A stretch of DNA of 51,477 nt from Candidatus Berkelbacteria bacterium (GTDB lineage: Bacteria; Patescibacteriota; UBA1384; XYA2-FULL-43-10; CAINNR01). Each line of letters starts with the position of its first letter. Positions within the stretch are counted from its first letter, which is position 1. The notes beneath the pieces were generated by a model. It made no database searches. It was not told where the DNA came from and worked only from the letters and a program-made list of their open reading frames with translations. Both the position numbers and the translations under genes were made by a program. Shown here piece by piece: positions 1 through 47,604 of this stretch. The stretch is taken from assembly GCA_026397205.1 (NCBI GenBank), contig JAPLVH010000014.1, forward strand, positions 1 to 51,477. The letters run 5' to 3'.

Positions 1-606
1 ATCACTATTTTATCAATACAGGAGCTAATTTTATATACTTTTAGTCGACTTTTTGATGAAATTAATCACTACCAAACTGACATATTAAGCCATCATTTTG
101 AGAGGGAATTGGCGACAGCGCCATATAGGGACGCTAAAAGTGCGTTGGTAAACCAAAAACAGCTTCTCAAAGAGAAATTATCGGCTTTTGAGCAAAAAGC
201 GAATAATCGGTTCGAACTTACCGAAAAGTTTTTGAAATACAATATAGAATTGGCAAACGAGGGAATAAATGAAGAGAAGCTTCATTTATTCAAAAAAGTC
301 GGTTCGAACTTTATTATTGAAGCTCGAACCGTACTTTTTGAGCCACGCGGAGCGTGGCGAATCCTTGCAGAATCAGGATTTTGTGGGGGGAATACAGAAC
401 AGACGGCGCTTCGCGCCGACCATATTTTTGGTTCAAAAACGAATTTCCAATTTTGGCGGAGAGAAAGGGATTCGAACCCTTGGAACCCTTGCGAGTTCAC
501 AGACTTTCCAGGTCTGCCAGTTAAACCACTCCTGCATCTCTCCATGTTTGTTCAATTATTTCTTGAAGTTTTAAAAAATCATTTTTGTTGTTATATCGTA
601 ATTTAA
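1..606 (+). CDS. partial ORF open to the left window edge; possibly the C-terminal part of a site-specific recombinase/integrase; its last ~50 codons read antisense through tRNA-Ser
   Basis: Frame 1 is open from nt 1 (ITILSIQELILYTF...) into the listed 109..606 ORF. The coiled-coil-like segment (KQLLKEKLSAFEQK) and the FEPRGAWRILAE tail recall recombinase C-termini, from memory only. It sits next to a tRNA. There is no stop before 604-606. Confidence 0.3.
   Translation: MTILSIQELILYTFSRLFDEINHYQTDILSHHFERELATAPYRDAKSALVNQKQLLKEKLSAFEQKANNRFELTEKFLKYNIELANEGINEEKLHLFKKVGSNFIIEARTVLFEPRGAWRILAESGFCGGNTEQTALRADHIFGSKTNFQFWRRERDSNPWNPCEFTDFPGLPVKPLLHLSMFVQLFLEVLKNHFCCYIVI
454..543 (-). tRNA. tRNA-Ser (anticodon GGA), class II with long variable arm, CCA encoded
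   Basis: The reverse complement gives acceptor GGAGAGA/TCTCTCC and anticodon stem CAGAC/GTCTG with loop CTGGAAA. The T arm is AAGGG-TTCGAAT-CCCTT, followed by discriminator G and CCA. Confidence 0.85.
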
Positions 607-2143: not shown

Positions 2144-4477
2144 CTATCGATCAATTATATTCGCCATCATCAGCCGTTTTTCAACCGAGGCGATTATTTT
2201 TTTTGTTTGAATTGCGACATCTGGCGTCACCGAAACCGAAGTTGCGCCGTTTTTGACCATCAGTTCGCAAAATTCTGGATAAATTGACGGCGCCTGACCG
2301 CAAACTGACGATGTGACGCCGTGTTTTCGGCAGGTTTTGACGACATAAGAAACCGAAAGCTCGACCGCTTCGTCCCGTTCATCGAATGATTTGGCCAAAT
2401 TCTGATTATCGCGATCAACACCCAAAGTCAGCTGGGTCAAATCATTTGTGCCAAGTGAAATTCCGTCAATACCGATGGCGAGAAATTTTTCCAGAAGAAT
2501 GACATTTGACGGCACCTCAACCATCATCCAAAGTTTGAATTCGTTTGATCGTTTTAGTCCGGCGGCCTCGGCCAACTCTTTACATTTACGCATTTCCTCG
2601 ACTGTTCGGACAAAAGGAATCATCAGGTGGACATTTGTTAAATCCATTTTATCGCGGACGGTTTTTAAGGCCGCAAGCTCAAGATTAAAGACCTCCGGAT
2701 CGGTGATGTAGCGAAGGGCACCGCGCATGCCGATCATCGGGTTGTCCTCCTTGCCCTCATATTTTTCGCCGCCTTTAAGGCCGCGGTATTCGTTGGTTTT
2801 GAAATCGGTCGCCCGATAAATTACCGGCCGCGGCGCAAATGCACTGGCGATTTGAGCGATGCCCTCGGCCAATTTGTTGGTAAATTCTTCGCCCCGGCCA
2901 TCGGCGATCATCGCCCGCGGATGTTCACCAATTCCGGCGATCATAAACTCCGCCCGGAGTAGTCCAACACCATCAACCGGCAACTTCGCCGCTGCTTCCG
3001 CCGCTTCCGGTTCGGCCAAATTGAGATAAACTTTTGTTCCGGTGATTGGAATTTCCTCGACCGCCGCACTGCCAATTAATTTTTCTCCGACTGCTGACTG
3101 CTGACTGCTGACTGCCGCCTTTTCCACTGCTCCTTTGTAAACCAAACCCTTGACGCCATCAACAGTCACGACTTGGCCGGTTTTGAGTGTTGTTGTCGCC
3201 GTTCCGGTGCCAACAACGCAGGGAATTCCCAGTTCGCGAGAAACGATCGCCGCGTGGCAAGTTCGACCGCCGGTGTCGGTAATAATTCCCTTCGCCCGTT
3301 TCATCGCCGGGACAAAATCCGGCGTTGTCATTTCAGTAACCAAAATATCGCCGACCTGAATTTGATCGTTCTGCTCTTTATTGTGAATAATTTTCACCGG
3401 CCCTGACGCCTGCCCAATCGAAGCCGCCGCACCTTTCAAAATTGTTTCGGCTTTATTTTCTTCAATAGATGTCTCTATTCCTTCATTTTGATCTTTGATT
3501 TTTACATTTTGATTTTTCAGTGTCGTTATCGGCCTTGATTGAACCAGATACGGCTTGCCGGCGGCAACCGCAAATTCCATATCCTGCGGCGAATTATAAT
3601 GGGCCTCAATTTTCATTCCGATTTTCGCCAGTTCGATGATGACGGCATCGGTTAATTTTTGATCTTTTTGGTCAGCGGCCGGAATTGCGACATGTTTATC
3701 ACCCCCGCCGGCACTTTTGACAATCTTCCACGGCTGGGAGTTGATCTCTTTGGCCGTGATTTTGCCGGTTGTCTTGTCATATAAATAGCGATCCGGTGTC
3801 ACCGAGCCGGAAACAATCGCTTCGCCTAAACCGAAGCCGGCCTCGATGATCAAGGTATTGGTGTCGCCGGTCGTCGGATCAACAGTGAACATAATTCCCG
3901 ACCGATCGGACTCGACCATAATTTGAATCGGCACCGCCAAACCGATTTTTCTCTGGTCATATTTGTTGACGATGCGATAGTAAATCGCCCTGGCTTCATA
4001 AAGCGAAGCAAAACACTTCTGTGTTGCTTTGACAACTTCGTCGGCGCCATGAATGTTGAGGAATGTCGCCTGTTGGCCGGCAAACGAAGCATCCGGCAAG
4101 TCCTCAGCCGTGGCGGAGGAACGAACGGCGACATCAACCGGTCCAAGTTTTTTGTAATTTTCCTTTATTTCCGCCGCCAATCTCGGTGGTATTTTTGCCG
4201 ACAAGATATGTTTTTTTATCACCCGCGACAGGGCATTTAATTTTTTTGAGTCCTCCGGATCAACTCCTTTGAGCGCTTTGGCGATCGCCGGACCGATGCC
4301 GGTTTGCTTTAGAAAATAATAGTAGGCCTCGGCGGTGACGATAAAACCGTTCGGCACCGGGAAACCGGCCCGAGTCATTTCACCAAGATTCGCCCCCTTG
4401 CCACCGACCAACGCCGTGTCTGTGCGACCAACATCTTTAAACCAAAGAATATGCGCTTTATTTTTGCTAAATGCCAT
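2144..4477 (-). CDS. ppsA: phosphoenolpyruvate synthase (pyruvate, water dikinase)
   Basis: 777 aa with the GGKGANLGEM ATP-grasp N-terminus, the phospho-His motif GGRTCHAAIVSRELGIP, and a C-terminal PEP-utilising domain. Confidence 0.9.
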   Translation of the reverse strand: MAFSKNKAHILWFKDVGRTDTALVGGKGANLGEMTRAGFPVPNGFIVTAEAYYYFLKQTGIGPAIAKALKGVDPEDSKKLNALSRVIKKHILSAKIPPRLAAEIKENYKKLGPVDVAVRSSATAEDLPDASFAGQQATFLNIHGADEVVKATQKCFASLYEARAIYYRIVNKYDQRKIGLAVPIQIMVESDRSGIMFTVDPTTGDTNTLIIEAGFGLGEAIVSGSVTPDRYLYDKTTGKITAKEINSQPWKIVKSAGGGDKHVAIPAADQKDQKLTDAVIIELAKIGMKIEAHYNSPQDMEFAVAAGKPYLVQSRPITTLKNQNVKIKDQNEGIETSIEENKAETILKGAAASIGQASGPVKIIHNKEQNDQIQVGDILVTEMTTPDFVPAMKRAKGIITDTGGRTCHAAIVSRELGIPCVVGTGTATTTLKTGQVVTVDGVKGLVYKGAVEKAAVSSQQSAVGEKLIGSAAVEEIPITGTKVYLNLAEPEAAEAAAKLPVDGVGLLRAEFMIAGIGEHPRAMIADGRGEEFTNKLAEGIAQIASAFAPRPVIYRATDFKTNEYRGLKGGEKYEGKEDNPMIGMRGALRYITDPEVFNLELAALKTVRDKMDLTNVHLMIPFVRTVEEMRKCKELAEAAGLKRSNEFKLWMMVEVPSNVILLEKFLAIGIDGISLGTNDLTQLTLGVDRDNQNLAKSFDERDEAVELSVSYVVKTCRKHGVTSSVCGQAPSIYPEFCELMVKNGATSVSVTPDVAIQTKKIIASVEKRLMMANIIDR

Positions 4478-5376: not shown

Positions 5377-5480
5377 ATGGGTTTTCAGGGAGGTAAAGGG
5401 ATCTTAGGGGATTCCGATCCATAATTTTCTCTCCCCATAATTTTCTACTCATAAGTTCCCCTTATCTCCCCTAAAATCCC

Positions 5481-5990
5481 TTAATTTCCCTTCCCCAAAA
5501 ATTTCTCGGCTTCCCTCCAAAATTCCTTTTCATTTCTTTCTTCATTTTGCTGGCGTCTGACAATTTTTTCGTTTGAGGAAATATTGCCGCTGCCAACTCT
5601 TTTCTGTTCGAGTGCTTCCATTTGATTGTGAAGCATTTTGCCTTCGCCTTTTAAGAGAAATATCGCCCGATCAGCAATACTCACATCACCCAAATTATTT
5701 CGCCGGCAATATTCAAAATCACCCAAAAGTTCTTCTAACGACCCTTTAGAAAATCCGAGAAACTCAATATATTCTTTCGTTGATGCCCGCGAAAATCCCT
5801 CTTCGATATTTCGAACTCCGGAGCGTGCCGACCGAAGCATGTGGTCGGCGGTGTCCATCATTTTCTGACCGGTTTCTGGATGATATTTCGGAAGCGTTTT
5901 GACAAACTTTTCCGTCAGCTCAAAAATTTCATTGGCTTGTTTCCAAGTCAACAAATTTTTATATCCTAACGGATTCCTTGGCACAAACAT
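5481..5990 (-). CDS. four-helix-bundle protein (23S rRNA intervening-sequence protein family) with a C-terminal extension
   Basis: YKNLLTWKQANEIFELTEKF...ADHMLRSARSGVRNIEEGF...GSLEELLGDFEY matches the family pattern as I remember it. Confidence 0.7.
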   Translation of the reverse strand: MFVPRNPLGYKNLLTWKQANEIFELTEKFVKTLPKYHPETGQKMMDTADHMLRSARSGVRNIEEGFSRASTKEYIEFLGFSKGSLEELLGDFEYCRRNNLGDVSIADRAIFLLKGEGKMLHNQMEALEQKRVGSGNISSNEKIVRRQQNEERNEKEFWREAEKFLGKGN

Positions 5991-6089
5991 TTATCACCCC
6001 TTACCTCCCTTAATTTCCCCTAAATTCCCTTTTCTTGATTTTATTTTGAATTCTGCTATGATGTTTGTATCACACGATCGGAGGTTGCG

Positions 6090-29306: not shown

Positions 29307-30605
29307 TTAAACTTTCTTTGTTTCGTCCCAATTGTCACCGATTCCAACTTCAACTTCTGTTGGCACCGAAAGTTTGACGACATTTTCCATCGTCTCTTTC
29401 ATAATTTTTGCGACACTCTCCGCATCTTTTACCGGCGCTTCGACAATAACCTCATCATGAACAGTCAAAATAATTTTTACTCCACCATTTTGACTTTTGA
29501 TTTTTGATTTTTGATTTAAAACTTGCATTTGATCCGCCAGGCGGATCAAGGCAAGTTTCAGTATCTCCGCCGCTGTTCCCTGCACCGGCGTGTTTATCGC
29601 CATTCTCTGTGCCGATTCCGATTTTATTCGGTCGGCCGAATTTATCTCCGGCAGTTTCCGCTGAAATCCAAACAGCGTTTCGACATAACCTAATTTTTTG
29701 GCTTGTGTAATCTGCTCCTCGCAATATTTTTTAATGCCGCCGTGAACGGCAAAATAGCGGAAAATATATTCCGCCGCCGATTCGCGGGCGATGCCCAAAG
29801 TTTGCGACAAACCGTATGGGCTGATGCCGTAAATGACTCCAAAGTTGACGGTTTTCGCCAGTCGCCGCTGATCGTTGGTGATTTTTTCAATCGGCACGCG
29901 AAATAATTCTGATGCTGTTCGCGAATGAATGTCAACGCCAGAGCTGAATGCTTCAACCATCGCCTTGTCGCCAGACAAACAAGCAACGACTCGGAGTTCG
30001 ATTTGCGAATAATCGGCCGAAATTAATTTACAATTTTTTTCGGCAATAAAAGCTCGGCGAATTTCCGGTCCGAAATCGCCTTTGATTGGGATATTTTGCA
30101 AATTCGGATTTGCCGATGTCAGCCGGCCGGTTCGGGTGTCGGTACCGAAATGGGTGTGAAGCCGAAAATTTTCGTCAACGATTTTCGGTAGCGGCTCTAA
30201 ATATGTTGACACTAATTTTGAAAGTTCGCGATATTCCAAAATTTTGCCGATGATCGGATTTCCGCCACGGAGTTTTTCCAGCTCCGACGCGCCAGTGGAA
30301 AATCCCGACTTTGTTCGCTTGAGTTCGCCGGTTGGCAATTTCATTTTGGTGAATAATATTTTCGCCAATTGCGTCGGCGACGCGACATTGAATTCCTCAC
30401 CAGCATTTTTCTGAATTTCCTTCCTTAACTTTTCACTTTTAACTTTTAACTTTTCACTAAGTCGCTTAAGCGACTTGACATCAACTTTTATTCCGACATC
30501 CTCGATCAACCTTAAAACCGGCGCCAATTTCTTGTCAATTTCCTCCGATTTAATTCTCGGAATTTTACAACCCAATTTTTCCGCCCGCGCTAAAATATTT
30601 TTCAT
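29307..30605 (-). CDS. polA: DNA polymerase I, polymerase domain only (no 3'-5' exonuclease domain)
   Basis: 432 aa with the family A motifs SADYSQIELRV, RRLAKTVNFGVIYG and VHDEVIVE. Confidence 0.9.
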   Translation of the reverse strand: MKNILARAEKLGCKIPRIKSEEIDKKLAPVLRLIEDVGIKVDVKSLKRLSEKLKVKSEKLRKEIQKNAGEEFNVASPTQLAKILFTKMKLPTGELKRTKSGFSTGASELEKLRGGNPIIGKILEYRELSKLVSTYLEPLPKIVDENFRLHTHFGTDTRTGRLTSANPNLQNIPIKGDFGPEIRRAFIAEKNCKLISADYSQIELRVVACLSGDKAMVEAFSSGVDIHSRTASELFRVPIEKITNDQRRLAKTVNFGVIYGISPYGLSQTLGIARESAAEYIFRYFAVHGGIKKYCEEQITQAKKLGYVETLFGFQRKLPEINSADRIKSESAQRMAINTPVQGTAAEILKLALIRLADQMQVLNQKSKIKSQNGGVKIILTVHDEVIVEAPVKDAESVAKIMKETMENVVKLSVPTEVEVGIGDNWDETKKV

Positions 30606-30639: not shown

Positions 30640-31686
30640 TTATAAAAGTTTTAGTTGTTCGTCTTTCTTTGGAATTTCTGATTTTGAATTTGTTTGTGAT
30701 TTGCCCACAGGGTCACTTCGTAGATTTCTTGTGATTTGCGATTTTTCGCCCTCAAATCTCCGGAGGAGCGATTGAAATCCCAACTCCTCAAAAAGTTCCG
30801 TCAGTTTGATTTTATCATACTCGCCGAAACGACATTTTTCCAGATCAAAATCAATCGGCACATCACGATAAATCGTCGCCAACTTCTGCGACATAAAAGC
30901 CTGATCACGATTCTCAATCAATAAATTTAATATTCTCGGTTTTATTTCTTTTTGATTTTCATCTTTGTCATTTTGATCTTTAATATTTGATTTTTGATCT
31001 ATATACGCATATAACTTTTCAAGCGAATCAAACTTCTGAATTAAATCTGTCGCCGTTTTACTGCCGATTCCCGGAACACCGGGAATATTGTCCGAAGCAT
31101 CGCCGGCCAGCGCTTTTAGATCAATAAAATCAGCCGGATCCAGATTATACTCTCGTTTGATTGTGTCGTGATCAACAATTTGGAGTTGACTCAAACCCTT
31201 GCGCAAACTATAAACTTTAACATTGCCATTTATCAGCTGATAAATATCCTTATCCCCGCTTACTATATATATGTCAATTCCGCTATTTTTCACTTTTAAT
31301 TTTTCACTTTTAATTTTCTCGGCAATTGTGCCGAGAATATCATCGGCCTCAAAAGTTTCCTTTTCGTAAATCGGAATTCCCATCGTCTCAACGATTTGTT
31401 TGACTCGGGGAATTTGATCGTAAAGTTCCTGATCGGCCTTAACTCGCGTCGCTTTGTAATCGGCGAACTCTTTGTGGCGAAAAGTCGGCCCGGCCAAATC
31501 GAACGAGCAAGCGATAAATTCCGGCTTCAAATCCTCCAAAACTTTAATCAGCGTGGTTGTAAAACCGTAAGTCGCGTTCGTCGGCTCGCCAGCACGCGTC
31601 GTCATCGTTTTCGGCAAAGCGTGATACGCCCGATGAATTATCGCATTACCATCAATCAAGACCAGTTTTTGATTTTCCTCTGTCAT
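30640..31686 (-). CDS. 5'-3' exonuclease (Pol I N-terminal FEN-like domain) as a separate gene
   Basis: LIDGNAIIHRAYHAL, SGDKDIYQL and an H3TH region (GDASDNIPGVPGIGSKTA). The C-terminal tail is repeat-derived (RSDPVGKSQTNSKSEIPKK). Confidence 0.9.
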   Translation of the reverse strand: MTEENQKLVLIDGNAIIHRAYHALPKTMTTRAGEPTNATYGFTTTLIKVLEDLKPEFIACSFDLAGPTFRHKEFADYKATRVKADQELYDQIPRVKQIVETMGIPIYEKETFEADDILGTIAEKIKSEKLKVKNSGIDIYIVSGDKDIYQLINGNVKVYSLRKGLSQLQIVDHDTIKREYNLDPADFIDLKALAGDASDNIPGVPGIGSKTATDLIQKFDSLEKLYAYIDQKSNIKDQNDKDENQKEIKPRILNLLIENRDQAFMSQKLATIYRDVPIDFDLEKCRFGEYDKIKLTELFEELGFQSLLRRFEGEKSQITRNLRSDPVGKSQTNSKSEIPKKDEQLKLL

Positions 31687-33137: not shown

Positions 33138-34007
33138 TTACCGACCTCCCTTGGCTTCTTTTGCCAATTTTGCATCGATATTTACCACAGCTTCAGCCAT
33201 CAGTTCGGCAACAAACGGATCGTCAGTTCTGAAAGTTCTCTGATCGAATGTCCGTCTTCCATTTTCTACATCTTCCCAGAAACCCTCGAAGAAATCCTTG
33301 AAATAGCTACCGTAAATATGGAAAGAATTTGCTGTGTGGGTATAATGACCGACACTAATTTTTCGACCAATCTTTGCGCTAATTCTTTCAGCAACAATCC
33401 GCTGCAAATCAGTAAAAGCGTACATATTCATCAGACCGGCTTTGAAGGCATCGTTGCTACGAATTCTGCAATCCATAATCAGTTGATCGTCAAAAATTCT
33501 GAACCAGAAACTCTGCAAACATGGTGGGTCTTTAATTCCGAAATCAGCCCAAGGTTTCCATGTTATTGCTTGCGCTTGTCGCGAATACGGTTGAGCAACC
33601 AAGGCATCAACAACTTGAGAAATCTGATCGATTGGATTTTCAATTCCGGGAACTTGAAAATATTCCAGCCGCTCATGATATGTGTATTCCCACTTGCCTT
33701 CTTCCGGCGCAATCCAATGGTCATGGACACCATCGACGACTTCACGGCGATAGATTTCCAAATCTTCAAATCCACCAGGCCATGCGCGGTGAAGACGGGG
33801 CTCGGCAAATGGATCAAGAATTGTCAGACACAAACCAATGTCACGTGATTTCGGATCACCGGGCTTATCATATTGGGTTGCAATTTCCGCGCCATATTTC
33901 CAGCAAGCTACAACTGATTCTTCCCAACCGCGAGCAAGACAATCACTGACCACTTGAACCGTTGGTCTAACCATCATTTTCAAAACTTCCGGCGGGGTAA
34001 TAATCAT
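33138..34007 (-). CDS. thyA: thymidylate synthase ThyA superfamily, divergent (archaeal-like) type
   Basis: PPCLQSFWFRI (catalytic Cys), RSNDAFKAGLMNMYAF (RS.D plus Asn) and ANSFHIYG align to the ThyA core motifs. Confidence 0.7.
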   Translation of the reverse strand: MIITPPEVLKMMVRPTVQVVSDCLARGWEESVVACWKYGAEIATQYDKPGDPKSRDIGLCLTILDPFAEPRLHRAWPGGFEDLEIYRREVVDGVHDHWIAPEEGKWEYTYHERLEYFQVPGIENPIDQISQVVDALVAQPYSRQAQAITWKPWADFGIKDPPCLQSFWFRIFDDQLIMDCRIRSNDAFKAGLMNMYAFTDLQRIVAERISAKIGRKISVGHYTHTANSFHIYGSYFKDFFEGFWEDVENGRRTFDQRTFRTDDPFVAELMAEAVVNIDAKLAKEAKGGR

Positions 34008-34099: not shown

Positions 34100-34127
34100 A
34101 TCTTAGCAGATGAAAAATTTTTGTCAA
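34100..34127 (-). promoter_or_regulatory. sigma70-like promoter TTGACA-16-TAAGAT
   Basis: Read on the reverse complement. Confidence 0.55.
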
Positions 34128-38206: not shown

Positions 38207-38315
38207 AAATCAAATATTAAAAATTAAAATGATAGATCAAAAAGTTTTAAATCCCGGCACGGAGTGCCGACCAACATTTTGACTTTTTATTTTTGATTTT
38301 TGATATACTTGGTTT

Positions 38316-40655: not shown

Positions 40656-42290
<1,635 letters not shown>

Positions 42291-42384
42291 TCATAAAATA
42301 ATAGTTTAGGATTAAGATCTCAGAATTTCTTAAATAGATTCCCTTCCACAATTCTTAATTCTGCATTCTTAATTCTTAATTGAT

Positions 42385-42660
42385 TTATAAGATTCCCAAA
42401 ATTTCTTTTTCCTGCACAATTTTATACTCCTTGCCGTCAATCTTGACTTCCTCGCCGGCATATTTTCCAAACAGAACTTTGTCGCCGACTTTGACTGAAA
42501 ATTTGTATTCTTTGCCGCCAACAAGTCCGCTACCAATAGCCAAAACCGTGCCTTCTGACCTTTCCTCTCTGGCGCTGTCGGGGATAATAATTCCCGATTT
42601 TGTCACTTCCTCCGCTTTTAGCAGCTCGATAATTACTCTGTCCCCAAGTGGCTTTAACAT
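42385..42660 (-). CDS. groS: co-chaperonin GroES
   Basis: MLKPLGDRVIIE...GIIIPDSA... Confidence 0.95.
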   Translation of the reverse strand: MLKPLGDRVIIELLKAEEVTKSGIIIPDSAREERSEGTVLAIGSGLVGGKEYKFSVKVGDKVLFGKYAGEEVKIDGKEYKIVQEKEILGIL

Positions 42661-42811
42661 TTGACTCCTTTCAGTCGTCCCCTTACTAAATTACAAATAA
42701 ATCCACGAAATTACGAAAATACAAATAAAATCTTATTTCGAATATTTGTAATTTCGTAAGGGACGTGTATTTTTTATTGTAAAGCAAACTTTACATTCTT
42801 GTCAAGGATTT

Positions 42812-42837
42812 GTCATTGCGAGCGAAGCGCGGCAATC
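42812..42837. repeat. left half of a GTCATTGCGAG-family element
   Basis: gtcattgcgagcgaagcgcggcaatc. Confidence 0.7.
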
Positions 42838-42934: not shown

Positions 42935-43264
42935 CTAATCAGTCGAACACATGAGATAGATTCCTGGGAGCATCGCCAAGATACACAGCGCAAAACCCGA
43001 GATTTCGGAGTTGTTAAGAAAGTTTTCTTTGGTTATTTTTCGGGAAACAATTCTTGGAATCAGCGAGAGACAAAATCCGACAAAAACAATGGCGAGGCAG
43101 TCAAGGAGATATAAACTGAAAGTCGCCGGCTTGAATTGCATCGCAGGAACGTAATTCCATCCCCACTGACCAAAAAGAATAAAGGACACAAAAAGAAAAA
43201 CTCCACCTACAATTCCCAAAACGGCACATCCTTTTTCATTTTTTTGACTCTTTGCCGTTTCCAT
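42935..43264 (-). CDS. small membrane protein (about 3 TM helices)
   Basis: Own TTGACA-17-TAAGTT promoter (43294..43328) and a GGAGGTGA Shine-Dalgarno. Hydrophobic segments are present. Confidence 0.6.
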   Translation of the reverse strand: METAKSQKNEKGCAVLGIVGGVFLFVSFILFGQWGWNYVPAMQFKPATFSLYLLDCLAIVFVGFCLSLIPRIVSRKITKENFLNNSEISGFALCILAMLPGIYLMCSTD

Positions 43265-43382
43265 CTGCCTTTCACCTCCGTGGTTTCTCGAACAATATCA
43301 ACTTAGCAAAAAAGATTTTTAATGTCAAAGAAATCTGTTCAAGTATGCAACGGCCGTTTAATATCTGAACAGATTTGAGATC

Positions 43383-43441
43383 AAAAAAACCGCCACGGGC
43401 GGGCGGAGGTTGGCAGCCCGGAAGGGGGAACCGAGCCGCCA
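43383..43441 (-). ncRNA. candidate small RNA (~60 nt): 10-bp hairpin with loop UUCCCCCUU, linker containing CCUCC, GC hairpin plus U7
   Basis: Preceded by TTGACA-17-TAAAAT (43447..43475). There is no SD or start codon downstream of the predicted TSS. Two G.U wobbles in the stem exist only on the minus-strand reading. Confidence 0.45.
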
Positions 43442-43446
43442 GTTTT

Positions 43447-43475
43447 ATTTTAGCAAGCGGACAAAATTCTGTCAA
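43447..43475 (-). promoter_or_regulatory. consensus promoter TTGACA-17-TAAAAT; the -35 overlaps the TGA stop of the upstream gene
   Basis: Read on the reverse complement. Confidence 0.6.
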
Positions 43476-45079
43476 CGGTCAAGATCGTAAATTGCCGCCG
43501 TTTGATCGCGGTAAATTGGCGAAGGCAAGCCACTCGAATCGGTGACGGCCGGAAAAATCAAATAACGAATTTGATATTGATTTCTGAGCGCCGAATAATT
43601 TTTCTCATCAATCAAATTGAAAATTGCCGCATCTTTTTCGCTGACACTCGTCGGCAGGCGTGAGATGTATCCGCCGACCAGCGGCTTTTGGTAAATTGTT
43701 TGGAAGTAAAGGGCAGATGTTGGCGTGTCAAGCAAATCAACGACGGCGCCGGCTGGAAGTTCGGCTAATTTTTGAACAAAATCCGGCGCGGCGGCTTTTG
43801 TCAGCGGCAGTTTCGCCGGCCAAAGCTCGACAAACATTAGGGCAAAAATCAAAAACAAAATTATCTTGCCGGAGATTTTTTTTGTTTGAATTTTCCCAAC
43901 AACGATCGCCAAAACCAACGACCCGGCAAGCATTGATATCACCATCATTCTGACCGGCGTGCCGCCAAGATTCAAAAACGGCAAAATTCTTGTCGCCAGC
44001 GAATACGGCAGCGGAATATCGCTGACAATTTTTCCGCCGATCTGTAACCGCGGACCGAAACTCAAAATACCAAAGATAAAAAATATCCACAACCAGAGCG
44101 CCAAATCACTACCACGAAATTTTTTGTAAGCGAAAATTGCCGCCAAAACCGCCAGCCAAATTATGATGCCGACCGAAACGCTTCCCTCAACAATCCCGAG
44201 CGGATTTTTCGTCCAGTAGCTTGCCGTTAGCGCAGCGAAGTGCCAAATCTGACCGGGAATTATCGCCGCCGGCAAATCCAGAGAAAACTCCAGCGCTTTG
44301 TGAACGCCAAGAAAAGTATCGCGCCAGTTGGCGAAAAAAATCAACAGCGACAGTGGCGCGACAATTAATGCCGACAAACCGACGAAAATCGCATAGTTTT
44401 TTTGGGCAAAATTTGACCACAGAAGTCGCCGCAAAACCAAAAGATAAATTATTATTATGCCAGCGACGATCAAGCAAAAAATCAAATAATATAAATCGGA
44501 AAATTCGACCAAAAAAAGCGTGACGGCAGAAAAAATCGCCAGCGGGATTGTCGGTTTTTTTAGCAGTCGCCAGAAACAGAGCAGAAAAAGCGGAATGAAT
44601 TCCAAGGTAATCAAATTCAGGTGGCCGATGGCGTGAGCGAAGTGGTAGCTGGAAAAGGTCAAGGCAAAACCGGCGAGAAGTCCGCCGATATACGATCGGG
44701 AGAACTCCCATGCGAGCCAAAATGTAAACAAACCGGTTAGAACGAAAGCCAAAATTACGATCAAATTATAACTTTGGACCAGTGAAAAAAATTTCAGCAG
44801 GATGACGGCAAAAATTCCGTTAATTGGATTTAAGGTCTGGGCCAAAAGCGTCGTACCGCCGGGAAAGTGGAGAAAGTTGGTGAAATAAATGTTTTGTTGA
44901 TGCTGAACGGCAAAATTCACCCACCAAAGATTCCAAACATTTTGCAAACCGTCGCCGGTGTCGGCAAAAAAAGCGCTGGAAAAGTGCGTCGTCCACGGCC
45001 AAGTGTAGAAAACAAAAAATGCCAGATAAAATAGTGCCGGCAGGATTCCAAAGAGAAAGATTTTTCGATATTTTTTCAT
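43472..45079 (-). CDS. polytopic membrane protein, possibly a GT-C-type glycosyltransferase
   Basis: 535 aa with more than 10 hydrophobic segments. The N-terminal loop (FFADTGDGLQNVWNLWW) and the architecture suggest this class. Not verified. Confidence 0.4.
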   Translation of the reverse strand: MKKYRKIFLFGILPALFYLAFFVFYTWPWTTHFSSAFFADTGDGLQNVWNLWWVNFAVQHQQNIYFTNFLHFPGGTTLLAQTLNPINGIFAVILLKFFSLVQSYNLIVILAFVLTGLFTFWLAWEFSRSYIGGLLAGFALTFSSYHFAHAIGHLNLITLEFIPLFLLCFWRLLKKPTIPLAIFSAVTLFLVEFSDLYYLIFCLIVAGIIIIYLLVLRRLLWSNFAQKNYAIFVGLSALIVAPLSLLIFFANWRDTFLGVHKALEFSLDLPAAIIPGQIWHFAALTASYWTKNPLGIVEGSVSVGIIIWLAVLAAIFAYKKFRGSDLALWLWIFFIFGILSFGPRLQIGGKIVSDIPLPYSLATRILPFLNLGGTPVRMMVISMLAGSLVLAIVVGKIQTKKISGKIILFLIFALMFVELWPAKLPLTKAAAPDFVQKLAELPAGAVVDLLDTPTSALYFQTIYQKPLVGGYISRLPTSVSEKDAAIFNLIDEKNYSALRNQYQIRYLIFPAVTDSSGLPSPIYRDQTAAIYDLDR

Positions 45080-45735
45080 CTTTTTTTCGGATGAAGCCGA
45101 AGTTCGTTTTTCTCAACAACAAAACGATATTTATCCATTTTGAACATCAAGCGACTTTCAACGACACTTTTTTGGATTTTGAATTGGACATTTTCAATAA
45201 AATCCCCGAACCAACCGTAGAAAAAAAGCTCGCCGATTTTTTGAATTGATGATAATTTTTTTGATGACTTGATCGGAAAGATTTTTTTGATTTGATTAAC
45301 ATTTTCCTGACTTTCAATTTTGACATCATAATCTTTCAGCCAGGAATTTTCGGCCAGGATTTGCTCGAAAATTCCGCCGCTGTCCCAAAGATTTATGATA
45401 TGGCGGTGAAAACCGGCGCAACGCCGGTCGTGCGGCAAAATGTCGAGTTTGTCGGACGGAAGTGAAAAATTGAGGCAGAATTTTCCGGCTGGATTTTTGT
45501 CATAAACTCGACGTTTATTGCCGGACAAAATCGCCAAAATTGTCACAAAAAAACGCGCCGTGTAAAGCCGCTTCGGGGCGCTGATGATCAAAAGATCAAT
45601 GTCGGATTTTTCGCTCGCCGCACCGGTCGTCATCGAGCCGGTCAAAATCACCGCCCGAACTCCGGGAGCAGTTTGAAGCGATCTGACAAACGATTCCATT
45701 TTTTTCAATCGGCGATCTAATAGTTCAACTTCCAT
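45076..45735 (-). CDS. nucleotidyltransferase-domain protein (Pol-beta superfamily)
   Basis: GSMTTGAASEKSDIDLLI (G[SG]..., D.D motif). There is a 4-nt overlap with the downstream membrane protein gene. Confidence 0.65.
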   Translation of the reverse strand: MEVELLDRRLKKMESFVRSLQTAPGVRAVILTGSMTTGAASEKSDIDLLIISAPKRLYTARFFVTILAILSGNKRRVYDKNPAGKFCLNFSLPSDKLDILPHDRRCAGFHRHIINLWDSGGIFEQILAENSWLKDYDVKIESQENVNQIKKIFPIKSSKKLSSIQKIGELFFYGWFGDFIENVQFKIQKSVVESRLMFKMDKYRFVVEKNELRLHPKKR

Positions 45736-45765: not shown

Positions 45766-47604
45766 CTATCCAGCTGGTGGCATAGCCGCCACTGGATCCG
45801 CCGGCGGTCCAACCTGCCACTGCTCCGGCAAGGCAACATAATGCGAAAGAAAATCGGTTGACTGTAAGATTGTGCCACTCAAAATAACCTGGTAGTGAAA
45901 TTTCGCCGAAGCACCTTGATGGGCGTGAGAAATTAAATTTCGCGTTCCCGCCGGCAGTGTCGGATCCAAGGTCTCAACCGGCGATGGCGGTTCGACATAA
46001 TCAAAACCGCTTGCCGCCCCGATCGTTATCTGCCGATCATCTTTAGTGCCATAAAATTCAAAAGTTAATTTTGTCCCGACGATGACCGACTGAATGAAAA
46101 TGTAACTCGAGTAGTTGTTGACAAATTTGAAATCCGGCGACGGATCGTAAATTGTTGCGTCCATGCCGATCGGCGGCTCATAATAGGAAACGCGATAAGA
46201 GTGATTTTGCCGCTCGGTAATTTTCATTCCGGCGTTAAGCGCCGCCCGAAAAAGTGTCGTCGAAACCTGACAGAGTCCGCCGCCGTAATCCGGCACGGTC
46301 TTGTTGTCTTTGATCACCAGCTCCGGCAAATATCCGGTTGAGGCGTTGATTTTGCCCAAATGCCCAAGTGTCGAAAACTCCTCGCCCGGTTTGAGCAAAG
46401 TTCCATTGATCGCTGTCGCGCCAACGCCGATGTTGTGAATCCGATTTGCCGGCGACTTGACAAAATTTGTCGTGCCACTGGCGACCAATTCGGTCAAGCC
46501 GTAAGATTTCAATTTTGTTGAATCAATTTCCGGCGCAATTTGATCAACTTTTAGAGTAATTAATGGTAGTTGTGTTTGATCAATCCGGTCGAGAATCGCC
46601 GCCGAAATTGTTGCTGTCGCCGCCTCACGATCCAACTTGGCGCCATTTTGCGACTGGTTGGAAACAGCAACCTGGCCGTTAACGACGGTCAAAACGGCGT
46701 TGCCGGCTGGTGTGTCAACCGCGGCGGCAAAACCGGCGACCTGCTTTTGGACTTGGTCGGGCAGAATATAAATCTCCAGCTCCTTGCCCTTCGGTCGCGA
46801 ACCGATCAACCCGGCAATCGAATCAACATCAAGTGTGAAATTTTTGCTGTTGGCGGCCAATGCCAAATTTCCCCCAGCCAAAATCCGGTTGGCGTCGACC
46901 AAACTTTTGTTGGCATTCTCCTCGGTAATCTGCGGCGGATATTTTTCGGTCTTAAAATCAACTTCCGCCATTTTGATTTTTGATCTTTGATCTTTGATTT
47001 CGTCAATCAAGTTTCCTTGATTGACGCGATTCCCTTCCTGCTTCTCGGTTGCTAATGTAAATTTCCCGCCACCGGCATACGCAAGCGAAAAATCCTTTTC
47101 CGGAATATCAATTCCGGCGGCAATCTCGGCAATTTTCGTCGCCAACTTATCGGCGCTAATGGAATAATCGGCGTCAACTTGATATTTGAACAACAAAGTT
47201 TTTGCCTGCTGATAAAAACTTATCAGCGGATTTTTCGCTCGGCCGACAGCAAAAACCATGTTGGCGGTTTCTTCAACATTATATTTCAAATCAATGTCGG
47301 AATTTTTTATTGTAAATGGCTTCGAATCGCCGGACTCCGGTTGATATTTTAGATTGATGTCAGCGGCTTCGGCTAACGATAATATCGGCGTCAAGATTTC
47401 TGTAACTTGTTCGTGACTTTTACCGCCGACATTTGCCGAGCCGACATAAATATTTCGATAAGTCGTTTTGCCGTAAGCCAAGGAATAAATTCCCAAAATT
47501 ATCAAAATAAAAACCAAAAAACTACCGACAAAAATTGTCGGCCATTTGATTTTCTTCCACAGGCGAATCCTTTTGGACTCTTGTTTTTCCTTTTTCTGCG
47601 CCAC
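45766..47604 (-). CDS. VanW-family protein with an N-terminal membrane anchor
   Basis: YGGGLCQVSTTLFRAALNAG...RQNHSYRVSYY is the VanW core. Confidence 0.8.
   Translation of the reverse strand: MAQKKEKQESKRIRLWKKIKWPTIFVGSFLVFILIILGIYSLAYGKTTYRNIYVGSANVGGKSHEQVTEILTPILSLAEAADINLKYQPESGDSKPFTIKNSDIDLKYNVEETANMVFAVGRAKNPLISFYQQAKTLLFKYQVDADYSISADKLATKIAEIAAGIDIPEKDFSLAYAGGGKFTLATEKQEGNRVNQGNLIDEIKDQRSKIKMAEVDFKTEKYPPQITEENANKSLVDANRILAGGNLALAANSKNFTLDVDSIAGLIGSRPKGKELEIYILPDQVQKQVAGFAAAVDTPAGNAVLTVVNGQVAVSNQSQNGAKLDREAATATISAAILDRIDQTQLPLITLKVDQIAPEIDSTKLKSYGLTELVASGTTNFVKSPANRIHNIGVGATAINGTLLKPGEEFSTLGHLGKINASTGYLPELVIKDNKTVPDYGGGLCQVSTTLFRAALNAGMKITERQNHSYRVSYYEPPIGMDATIYDPSPDFKFVNNYSSYIFIQSVIVGTKLTFEFYGTKDDRQITIGAASGFDYVEPPSPVETLDPTLPAGTRNLISHAHQGASAKFHYQVILSGTILQSTDFLSHYVALPEQWQVGPPADPVAAMPPAG

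Follow-up and report, generated by a model that had tools for sequence, protein, structure and literature searches.

The 51,477-nt contig JAPLVH010000014.1 of a Candidatus Berkelbacteria bacterium (assembly GCA_026397205.1; this whole stretch is referred to as the window) carries on its minus strand, upstream of the chaperonin operon groES-groEL, a compact unit of promoter, hairpin and terminator, whose predicted product we call the C-loop RNA. Our comparison of related loci indicates that the C-loop RNA is almost certainly a real, conserved structured RNA of a lineage of Patescibacteria (candidate phyla radiation, CPR) related to Candidatus Berkelbacteria, and the copy in the window probably represents an autonomous transcription unit. 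For the complete proposal, which includes an action in trans through the apical loop of the hairpin, we see an even chance. Base-pairing of this loop to G-rich RNA, as suggested by analogy to other small RNAs (sRNAs), is proposed a little more tentatively, and the identity of the loop partner and the regulatory outcome are speculative.

An earlier note on this DNA, made from the sequence alone, had proposed a small RNA at this position and suggested collecting the syntenic spacers of related genomes to look for covariation. Using the candidate RNA as a blastn query we found, in the closest relatives, a match a few hundred bases upstream of groEL and on the groEL strand. A GroEL-anchored scan of metagenome contigs provided 80 loci, in which GroEL is 64-85% identical to that of the window, and about 29 of these contain the module upstream of groES on the groEL strand, as revealed by blastn, a loop-anchored stem and pattern search, a covariance model (R1, built from six sequences) and inspection. 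The module is also present in all examined loci that were anchored on the neighbouring nucleotidyltransferase (NTase) gene and reach groES (L185-L188 and L191-L193; L numbers denote individual loci), which results in a total of about 37 related loci, including one named Candidatus Berkelbacteria genome. The metagenome loci come without taxonomy, and their lineage is taken from the names on the NTase homologs together with this one genome. Model R1 recognizes the hairpin of the window with 55 bits (E = 3.6e-13) and four loci unseen in its building at E ~1e-13 (about 1e-12 to 2e-13), and the best score in the negative controls is 19 bits. The specificity is further illustrated by 29 C-loop hairpins on the groEL strand compared with 3 chance matches in 654 kb of unrelated loci.

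The family is characterized by a sigma-70 promoter whose -10 element ends 2-9 nt before the helix, a helix of 10-24 bp and the loop (A/U)UCCCCCUU. Most members also possess a terminator, whose U-run follows the helix immediately (L092, L097) or is separated from it by a second small hairpin. A correctly spaced promoter of at least 9/12 is found in 23 of 32 members, in contrast to 3.7% of random positions (p = 2e-26), and 28 of 32 members have a run of at least five U no more than 60 nt from the hairpin, the background being 21% (p = 2e-15). The helices fall into classes unrelated in sequence (GGCGGC.., GAUGGAAG.., UGCUAGGAGA.., UUCCGGCGA.., GGCGGGAGCGA.., GAUGGUAGC..), all of them with the same C5UU loop at the apex, and two loop-length classes can be distinguished among the members. 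When five divergent members are folded without constraints, the C-run comes to lie in the apical loop, and the folds reach z = -4.3 to -5.9.

Covariation was assessed with 12 distinct sequences from the two nearest classes, for which the 31-nt hairpins were aligned and only the outer helix was scored. Standard pairs occupy 100% of the 85 cells, and compensatory double changes occur at 3 pairs in 12 cells. The covariation score, a shuffle-based statistic that is inflated by the kinship of the sequences, is 0.415 compared with 0.205 +/- 0.035 for the shuffles, and 0 of 500 shuffles reach the observed value. Independent of kinship are the slid-register control, in which pairing is seen in at most 50% of the cells, and the existence of the unrelated helix classes. 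RNAalifold predicts the same helix, and in L115 the block that closes the loop has changed in a compensatory manner, from CGG/CCG to AGG/CCU. The proposed small-RNA unit without an open reading frame (ORF) is therefore well supported by a module that is kept in about 37 loci, by the covariation of its stem and by promoter and U-run frequencies far above background.

Within the window, a promoter scan recovered the TTGACA-17-TAAAAT promoter (P1, Table 1) at the position given in the earlier note. It is an 11/12 match to the sigma-70 consensus with an extended -10 and the joint-best promoter-like site in a 5-kb scan; about seven sites of this strength exist in the whole 51-kb window, most of them preceding genes. 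As also described before, the -35 element overlaps the TGA stop codon of the upstream 535-aa ORF. The helix of hairpin 1, counted here as 11 bp, begins 5 nt past the -10 element and carries the C-rich 9-nt loop at the site described, and the GC hairpin with its U7 tail is equally present. Judged from this geometry, transcription would start between A43443 and G43440, 4-7 nt past the -10 element, and the transcript is predicted to end within the U7 tract. There is no Shine-Dalgarno (SD)-preceded ORF that begins after this predicted start, and the next gene, encoding a protein of 109 aa, has its own TTGACA-17-TAAGTT promoter, both in agreement with the earlier note. The minus-strand RNA folds with -29.3 kcal/mol (z = -3.04; 1 of 200 shuffles as good), whereas the plus strand reaches z = -0.46 (67 of 200 shuffles as good), and this asymmetry supports the argument for minus-strand expression that had been based on the G.U pairs of the stem. 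The hairpin-only centroid structure of the 64-nt fold has an energy of -20.7 kcal/mol.

A cmscan search against Rfam returned no match to the element, neither at the gathering threshold for the whole window nor at E <= 10 for the region, and six relatives gave none at E <= 1. In addition, our literature searches found no described RNA that is from CPR bacteria, linked to groES or of the C-loop type. The C-loop RNA would form a new RNA family among the sRNAs with C-rich loops, outside RsaE/RoxS and 6C.

Evidence for the autonomy of the unit comes from gene insertions. Unrelated genes have been inserted independently between the module and groES in five cases (the window, L185, L089, L091 and L188), and between the NTase gene and the module in the window (a DUF6311 gene) and in L188 (a minus-strand pilin-like gene). 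After every insertion the promoter-hairpin-terminator module is intact, which is the behavior of an autonomous gene. In the window lineage it is the 109-aa gene that has been placed between module and groES.

The groES gene of the window is preceded by a separate promoter (P2), which harbors the palindrome TGTAAAG-TTTG-CTTTACA. The same palindrome is perfect in the groES promoters of L085/90, L088, L089, L092-94, L136, L188 and L191-193 with a variable 4-nt spacer, and variants of it are found in the hairpin-driving promoter of L111 and L112. Conserved arms in combination with a variable spacer make TGTAAAG-N4-CTTTACA a likely repressor operator, and, in a clade devoid of the controlling inverted repeat of chaperone expression (CIRCE), it has the appearance of a heat-shock operator not described before. 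Taking together the insertions on both sides of the module, the two terminators before groES and the operator-bearing groES promoter, we infer that the RNA of the window would have to act in trans.

In the explanation we favor, P1 would start transcription about 0-3 nt before the 11-bp hairpin and the intrinsic terminator would end the transcript about 58 nt further on. The helix would serve as a scaffold, the sequence of which can be freely replaced as long as pairing is kept, and the 5'-flush hairpin should shield the RNA from RNase J, for which the window contains a gene. The apical loop (A/U)UCCCCCUU, invariant and with its C5UU core as the presumed functional recognition element, would most likely recognize a G-rich single-stranded partner. 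By analogy with RsaE/RoxS and 6C, this partner might be found in G-rich, SD-like mRNA leaders, and SD-targeting in the manner of RsaE/RoxS would be plausible on these grounds. The whole clade has kept the gene beside the chaperonin locus, and the function of the RNA would be tied to this locus.

The loop can pair with SD sequences of the GGGAGG type. Furthermore, 6-7 members contain within the RNA itself a G-run with complementarity to the loop (up to 8 bp, AAGGGGGA), and this shows that the loop is able to pair; the copy in the window has no such run. For these members a pseudoknot or self-masking arrangement of loop and G-run is suggested. A GGGG(G)A run, often followed by GGAGGG, is located 10-45 nt past the hairpin in L085/L090, L086, L087, L089, L105, L188 and L191-193, with a complementarity of 5-8 bp.

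Several observations weigh against an action in trans by pairing. The median energy of the duplex between loop and mRNA is -5.9 kcal/mol for groES and -4.5 kcal/mol for groEL, in contrast to -7.0 kcal/mol for 115 other genes of the same loci, and an anti-SD action on groES or groEL was rejected for this reason. The loop reads CCCCC in every clear member and never CCUCC, which argues against the canonical SD GGAGG as partner. SD-targeting in the manner of RsaE/RoxS, to which the earlier note had pointed, is thus a plausible analogy and not a finding. The CCUCC of the linker, described in the earlier note as the exact complement of GGAGG, is present but specific to the window lineage and absent from relatives. 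A target scan of the window revealed no convincing or conserved target, and the UAAGGGGAC site in the groES leader of the window is absent from relatives and thus lineage-specific. Moreover, a loop of 8-9 nt is conserved across lineages in which GroEL is only about 65-70% identical; such a depth of conservation is unusual for an mRNA-targeting sRNA, and a protein or ribosomal partner fits at least as well. Module and groES share their orientation in every locus, and the lack of a second promoter (L087, L104, L105, group C) or of a terminator (L108, L111, L112) points to a role in cis at least in those lineages. Finally, all loci of the family were gathered through GroEL or the neighboring NTase, and the module is present as a single copy within the 51-kb window, to which this count is limited.

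The relation between module and groES differs among the lineages, and four arrangements can be distinguished. In the first one, P1, hairpin, terminator, the operator-bearing P2 and groES follow each other (the window and its nearest relatives, L093/94, L136). The second has a P2 without operator and with its -35 element inside the terminator arm (L103, L106, L114, L115, L140). In the third there is no recognizable second promoter, and the groES start is 36-107 nt away (L087, L095, L096, L100, L104, L105, L117, L118, L152). The fourth lacks the terminator and the hairpin forms the 5' end of the groES mRNA (L108, L111, L112). Placement in the 5' untranslated region (UTR) without an intervening promoter is therefore not the situation in the window, where the 109-aa gene, two terminators and P2 lie between, but it applies to about 12 relatives. 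Judged from these arrangements, the hairpin is predicted to be a free-standing RNA in some lineages and part of the chaperonin mRNA in others. The earlier note had contained neither the strict linkage to groES-groEL nor the position of the hairpin at the 5' end of the groES mRNA in some relatives.

The arrangements are the basis of the strongest alternative, namely that the element is a cis-acting 5' leader or attenuator of groESL, in which the hairpin, with a loop that might be bound by a factor, governs termination and read-through, mRNA stability or translation. The short RNA would then be a terminated by-product and the copy in the window a detached derivative. We consider this explanation unlikely on the whole, yet it accounts for a good part of the data. 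In all of the about 37 loci the module is upstream of groES, and since the leader loci of the third arrangement lack both CIRCE and the TGTAAAG palindrome, hairpin and terminator are the sole conserved element in front of groES there. In the three loci of the fourth arrangement the hairpin belongs to the groES mRNA itself, and the promoter of L111 and L112 carries the operator-like palindrome. In addition, the C-loop module and CIRCE are mutually exclusive at the same slot. Of 69 loci in which 600 nt or more precede groEL, 27 carry the C-loop module, 35 a canonical CIRCE and 8 neither of them, with one spurious overlap in L089 (a 4-mismatch CIRCE match inside the groES reading frame). With up to 4 mismatches allowed, no match to CIRCE (TTAGCACTC-N9-GAGTGCTAA) is found anywhere in the window, nor ahead of groES in the other C-loop loci. 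However, this exclusivity may follow phylogeny alone and go back to a single ancestral switch.

What speaks against the leader explanation is first of all the window itself, as its module is insulated from groES by the terminator, by an inserted gene with promoter and terminator of its own and by the separate operator-bearing P2, and four other lineages with different inserted genes all retain the intact module as well. Second, no conserved alternative terminator/antiterminator pairing was found among the members; the loop can pair with a G-run beside the U-tract in L105 and L089, but this is not general. Third, hairpin 1 differs from RNA thermometers of the ROSE or fourU type, as it contains no SD sequence and is very stable, with helices of 10-24 bp in the family. 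Fourth, the complementarity of the loop to the groES initiation region does not exceed the background.

A further alternative, which we regard as rather improbable, is that the loop is read by a conserved macromolecule, i.e., a protein, the ribosome or RNA polymerase, with the RNA serving as platform or decoy in both its embedded and free-standing form. Examples of such partners would be an RNA-binding protein of the KH, RRM or cold-shock type or a proteostasis regulator. An invariant loop over deep divergence in combination with a rewritten helix is typical of hairpins recognized by proteins or ribosomes, and the CCCCC loop without any CCUCC variant and the lack of enriched mRNA complementarity point in the same direction. 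The occurrence of the hairpin in embedded and free-standing form is what a position-independent binding site would allow. Nevertheless, there is no candidate for the partner, and the internal G-runs complementary to the loop favor RNA pairing, at least in some members.

The product of the adjoining NTase gene was considered as functional partner and rejected. The gene is adjacent to the module in 23 of 23 C-loop loci with enough flank and in 0 of 28 CIRCE loci; in five of the latter a distant homolog occurs, at 1.8-3.3 kb upstream of groEL in four cases and on the opposite strand in the fifth. The NTase-anchored loci, one of them the Candidatus Berkelbacteria genome, share with the window the gene order H+-PPase, VanW, NTase, RNA, groES and groEL, and the NTase gene is found beside groES without the hairpin in L098, L102 and L109. 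Therefore, the adjacency is explained by lineage-wide synteny and not by functional pairing.

In a broader reading, the C-loop hairpin could be the RNA part of a Patescibacteria-specific chaperonin or proteostasis circuit that replaces HrcA-CIRCE, with regulatory leader copies and free copies as decoys, but we regard this as improbable too. In this circuit the reader of the C5UU loop would be a protein, the ribosome or RNA polymerase, which would thereby set read-through, stability or translation of the groESL transcripts, and abundant free-standing copies, as in the window, would tune the same factor. This would amount to an RNA heat-shock regulator interchangeable between cis and trans that works together with the TGTAAAG-N4-CTTTACA operator.

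Returning to the free-standing RNA that we favor, three further explanations can be set aside with more confidence. It is very improbable that the hairpins are only the terminator of the upstream operon and that the promoter match is fortuitous or gives rise to a meaningless 3'-end transcript, as the earlier note had considered as an alternative. The unit indeed follows directly after the DUF6311 stop codon, and the second hairpin with its U7 tract is a textbook terminator, which probably also ends the transcript of the upstream gene. However, the upstream gene varies between lineages (NTase, DUF6311, the minus-strand pilin-like gene of L188), while the promoter travels with the hairpin at a fixed distance, and the element is for this reason not simply the terminator of that gene. 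Furthermore, no such hairpin follows the nearest DUF6311 homologs, terminators are not characterized by an invariant loop, and hairpin 1 is not a terminator in many members. A DNA operator similar to CIRCE and bound by a heat-shock repressor is even less probable: such an operator would agree with the inverted repeat (9-11 nt spacer) at the transcription start in front of groES, a position analogous to that of CIRCE, and with the mutual exclusion of the two, but here it is the spacer that is conserved and the arms that change and covary, the opposite of what a palindrome bound by a protein shows, the G.U pairs occur on one strand only, the helix extends to 10-24 bp, there is no match to the CIRCE consensus and a separate palindrome with conserved arms is already present in the groES promoter. 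The same low probability applies to a leaderless or near-leaderless micro-ORF for a small peptide: many copies begin with AUGG or GUGG and in several members the hairpin is spanned by short ORFs of 11-54 aa (e.g., MAARFPLP.. in the closest relatives of the window), yet a start codon is missing at this site in the window, L096 and L117, the C-run occurs in all three frames depending on the group (15, 9 and 7 cases), no copy has an SD sequence, the peptides are unrelated between groups and the arm substitutions are compensatory for pairing and not synonymous. A conserved peptide-coding signal, which the earlier note had named as a refutation of the sRNA, was thus looked for across the members and not found.

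Compared with known systems, the C-loop RNA has its closest parallel in sRNAs with C-rich seeds. The C-rich motif of RsaE/RoxS pairs with G-rich, SD-containing mRNA regions without the help of Hfq. The C-loop RNA, as far as its sequence tells, resembles RsaE/RoxS as a stand-alone sRNA with its own promoter, an intrinsic terminator and an unpaired C-rich motif, but it has only about half the size and one C-run instead of several, comes from another phylum (RsaE/RoxS belong to the Firmicutes) and is fixed beside groESL, whereas RsaE/RoxS are regulated by redox state or nitric oxide. The lack of an Rfam match and the single conserved C-run in place of two or more also speak against a membership in this family. 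The actinobacterial 6C sRNA (B11) carries two C-rich hairpins. With 6C the C-loop RNA shares the C5-6 in the apical loop on a stable helix, but it has a single C-rich hairpin, no Rfam match and a different phylum and genomic context. C-rich seed regions are documented for RsaE/RoxS (PMC6158497, PMC5419742), and the title of a paper cited in PMC8557902 describes C-rich loops as the seed regions of 6C.

A connection between an sRNA and chaperonins is also known from F6/SfdS of M. tuberculosis, the deletion of which up-regulates groES and groEL2 (PMC8557902). The C-loop RNA is so far connected with groESL by synteny alone, and F6 differs in being SigF-dependent, not encoded beside groES and without sequence relationship to the C-loop RNA. 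The CIRCE/HrcA system is similar in that an inverted repeat with a spacer of about 9 nt is located at or just after the transcription start upstream of groES. In CIRCE, however, the arms are conserved, the spacer is variable and duplex DNA is recognized, whereas the C-loop element has covarying arms and a conserved loop and would function as RNA; the role of the operator seems to be taken in this clade by TGTAAAG-N4-CTTTACA. Stable stem-loops near the 5' end protect RNAs against 5'-exonucleolytic decay. The 5'-flush stem-loop and the RNase J encoded in the window are in line with such stabilizer hairpins and 5'-UTR-derived sRNAs of bacteria with RNase J/Y, but generic stabilizers need no conserved loop, and the loop is the most conserved part of the C-loop RNA.

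Patescibacteria/CPR represent a large share of bacterial diversity, and gene regulation in these organisms is almost undescribed; according to a transcriptome preprint, TM7x, the best-studied CPR member, lacks validated small RNAs (bioRxiv 10.1101/2022.03.25.485537). The C-loop RNA has been kept across lineages with GroEL about 65-85% identical to that of the window, always beside the essential chaperonin operon, and together with the groES palindrome it outlines, in a clade without CIRCE, a heat-shock regulatory arrangement that has not been described. Even if it turned out to be only a generic sRNA with a C-rich seed, it would be a new family of Rfam grade. The RNA is also tractable: it is small enough to be synthesized, the choice of a loop mutant is obvious, and its promoter and terminator can be expected to function in heterologous hosts.

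Table 1. Features of the C-loop module and of the surrounding genes in the window.
Feature	Position	Strand	Description
Promoter P1	43475..43447	minus	-35 TTGACA at 43475..43470, 17-nt spacer, TGn-extended -10 TAAAAT at 43452..43447
Predicted primary transcript	43383..43443	minus	about 55-61 nt (~58), from promoter and terminator geometry
Hairpin 1	43411..43441	minus	11-bp helix UGGCGGCUCGG / CCGGGCUGCCA with two G.U pairs; pair U43441-A43411
Apical loop UUCCCCCUU	43422..43430	minus	C5UU core invariant across clear family members
CCUCC in linker	43409..43405	minus	overlaps the 5' arm of the terminator hairpin
Intrinsic terminator	43383..43406	minus	CCGCC-CGCCCGU-GGCGG at 43406..43390 (5-bp GC stem) and U7 at 43389..43383
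109-aa membrane-protein gene	42935..43264	minus	own promoter TTGACA-17-TAAGTT at 43328..43300 (9/12) and strong terminator
groES promoter P2	42776..42805	minus	TTGACA-18-TACAAT, 11/12
Palindrome TGTAAAG-TTTG-CTTTACA	42795..42778	minus	between -35 and -10 of P2
groES	42385..42660	minus	downstream of the module; operon 40656..42660
groEL	40656..42278	minus	module upstream of groES-groEL in every related locus
DUF6311 (PF19830) membrane-protein gene	43472..45079	minus	535 aa; inserted between NTase gene and module
Pol-beta-type NTase gene	45076..45735	minus	219 aa; ancestral upstream neighbor of the module

The DUF6311 gene overlaps the stop codon of the NTase gene (ATGA), and its best matches, with 36-50% identity, are distributed over many phyla including Omnitrophota, Acidobacteriota and Chloroflexota. 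The contig of the nearest relative (P0122, ENA) contains the NTase gene, a gap of 377 nt and the 109-aa gene without a DUF6311 gene, and we assume that the latter is probably a horizontally acquired insertion. The DUF6311 protein was of no use as a route to syntenic spacers, as its homologs are not syntenic, belong to many phyla and have no similar hairpin downstream, and the 109-aa protein has only one homolog. The only exact DUF6311 matches come from the same organism in two other sequencing runs, where the spacer is identical to that of the window. The NTase matches PF01909 weakly, displays the motifs GS..G..SDIDLLI..RLYTARFF..AGKFCLNY..ELRFHP and has no sequence relative in the PDB. In some lineages the NTase has about 300 aa with an extra N-terminal winged-helix-like domain, and L115 carries both forms in tandem.

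A scan of a viral collection for the loop motif gave 20 matches, which are due to chance and without stems except for one GC-rich phage hairpin. The latter (L172 2828..2870, identical to L182, from IMG/VR) is a perfect 14-bp hairpin with the loop UUAUCCCCCUUCC after a capsid-like gene; it has neither promoter nor U-run, is rejected by the covariance model and is probably coincidental. The sole Rfam match at threshold in the window is a tRNA with a long variable arm (457..543, minus strand, 53.6 bits). Between the terminator of the sRNA and the -35 element of the promoter of the 109-aa gene, an 11-bp inverted repeat (AAATCTGTTCA-N23-TGAACAGATTT) is located at 43331..43374 on the minus strand, and weak chance matches to Rfam families (mir-255, sau-19) at this position are caused by the repeat.

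Several sites complementary to the C-loop occur in G-tract direct repeats (GGGAAAUUAAGGGA..AGGGGA..AAGGGGA) on both flanks of a gene for a four-helix-bundle protein of the 23S-rRNA-intervening-sequence type (5481..5990, PF05635), and the region 5440..6035 on the minus strand probably represents an insertion bounded by repeats. Another promoter-like site (TTGACA-16-TAAGAT with TGn) lies at 34100..34127 on the minus strand, in a divergent intergenic region upstream of the gene 33138..34007. Directly 3' of it, within about 50 nt, follow a short hairpin with a U-run, GGGC-AACGA-GCCC-UUUUU, and a second hairpin, GUUGCC-GUUU-GGCAAC, and this site may be another short leader or sRNA-like unit.

The intergenic regions of the window and of related loci also contain a repeat (..GATTGC(C/T)(G/T)CGCTTCGCTCGCAATGAC..), often as an inverted pair GTCATTGCGAG...CTCGCAATGAC, which resembles repetitive extragenic palindromes (REP) or miniature inverted-repeat transposable elements (MITE). 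It was found in the window at 42812..42835, 13733, 47597, 48831 and 49278, in L085 at 3375..3450 and in L086 and L097. Many intergenic spacers are made up, on the plus strand, of short T-rich units in tandem, (TTTTGA/TTTTCAC/TTTTAAC)n, for example at 29473..29518, 30408..30458, 30949..31001, 38271..38307 and 46949..47001, which corresponds to purine-rich 5' leaders of minus-strand genes.

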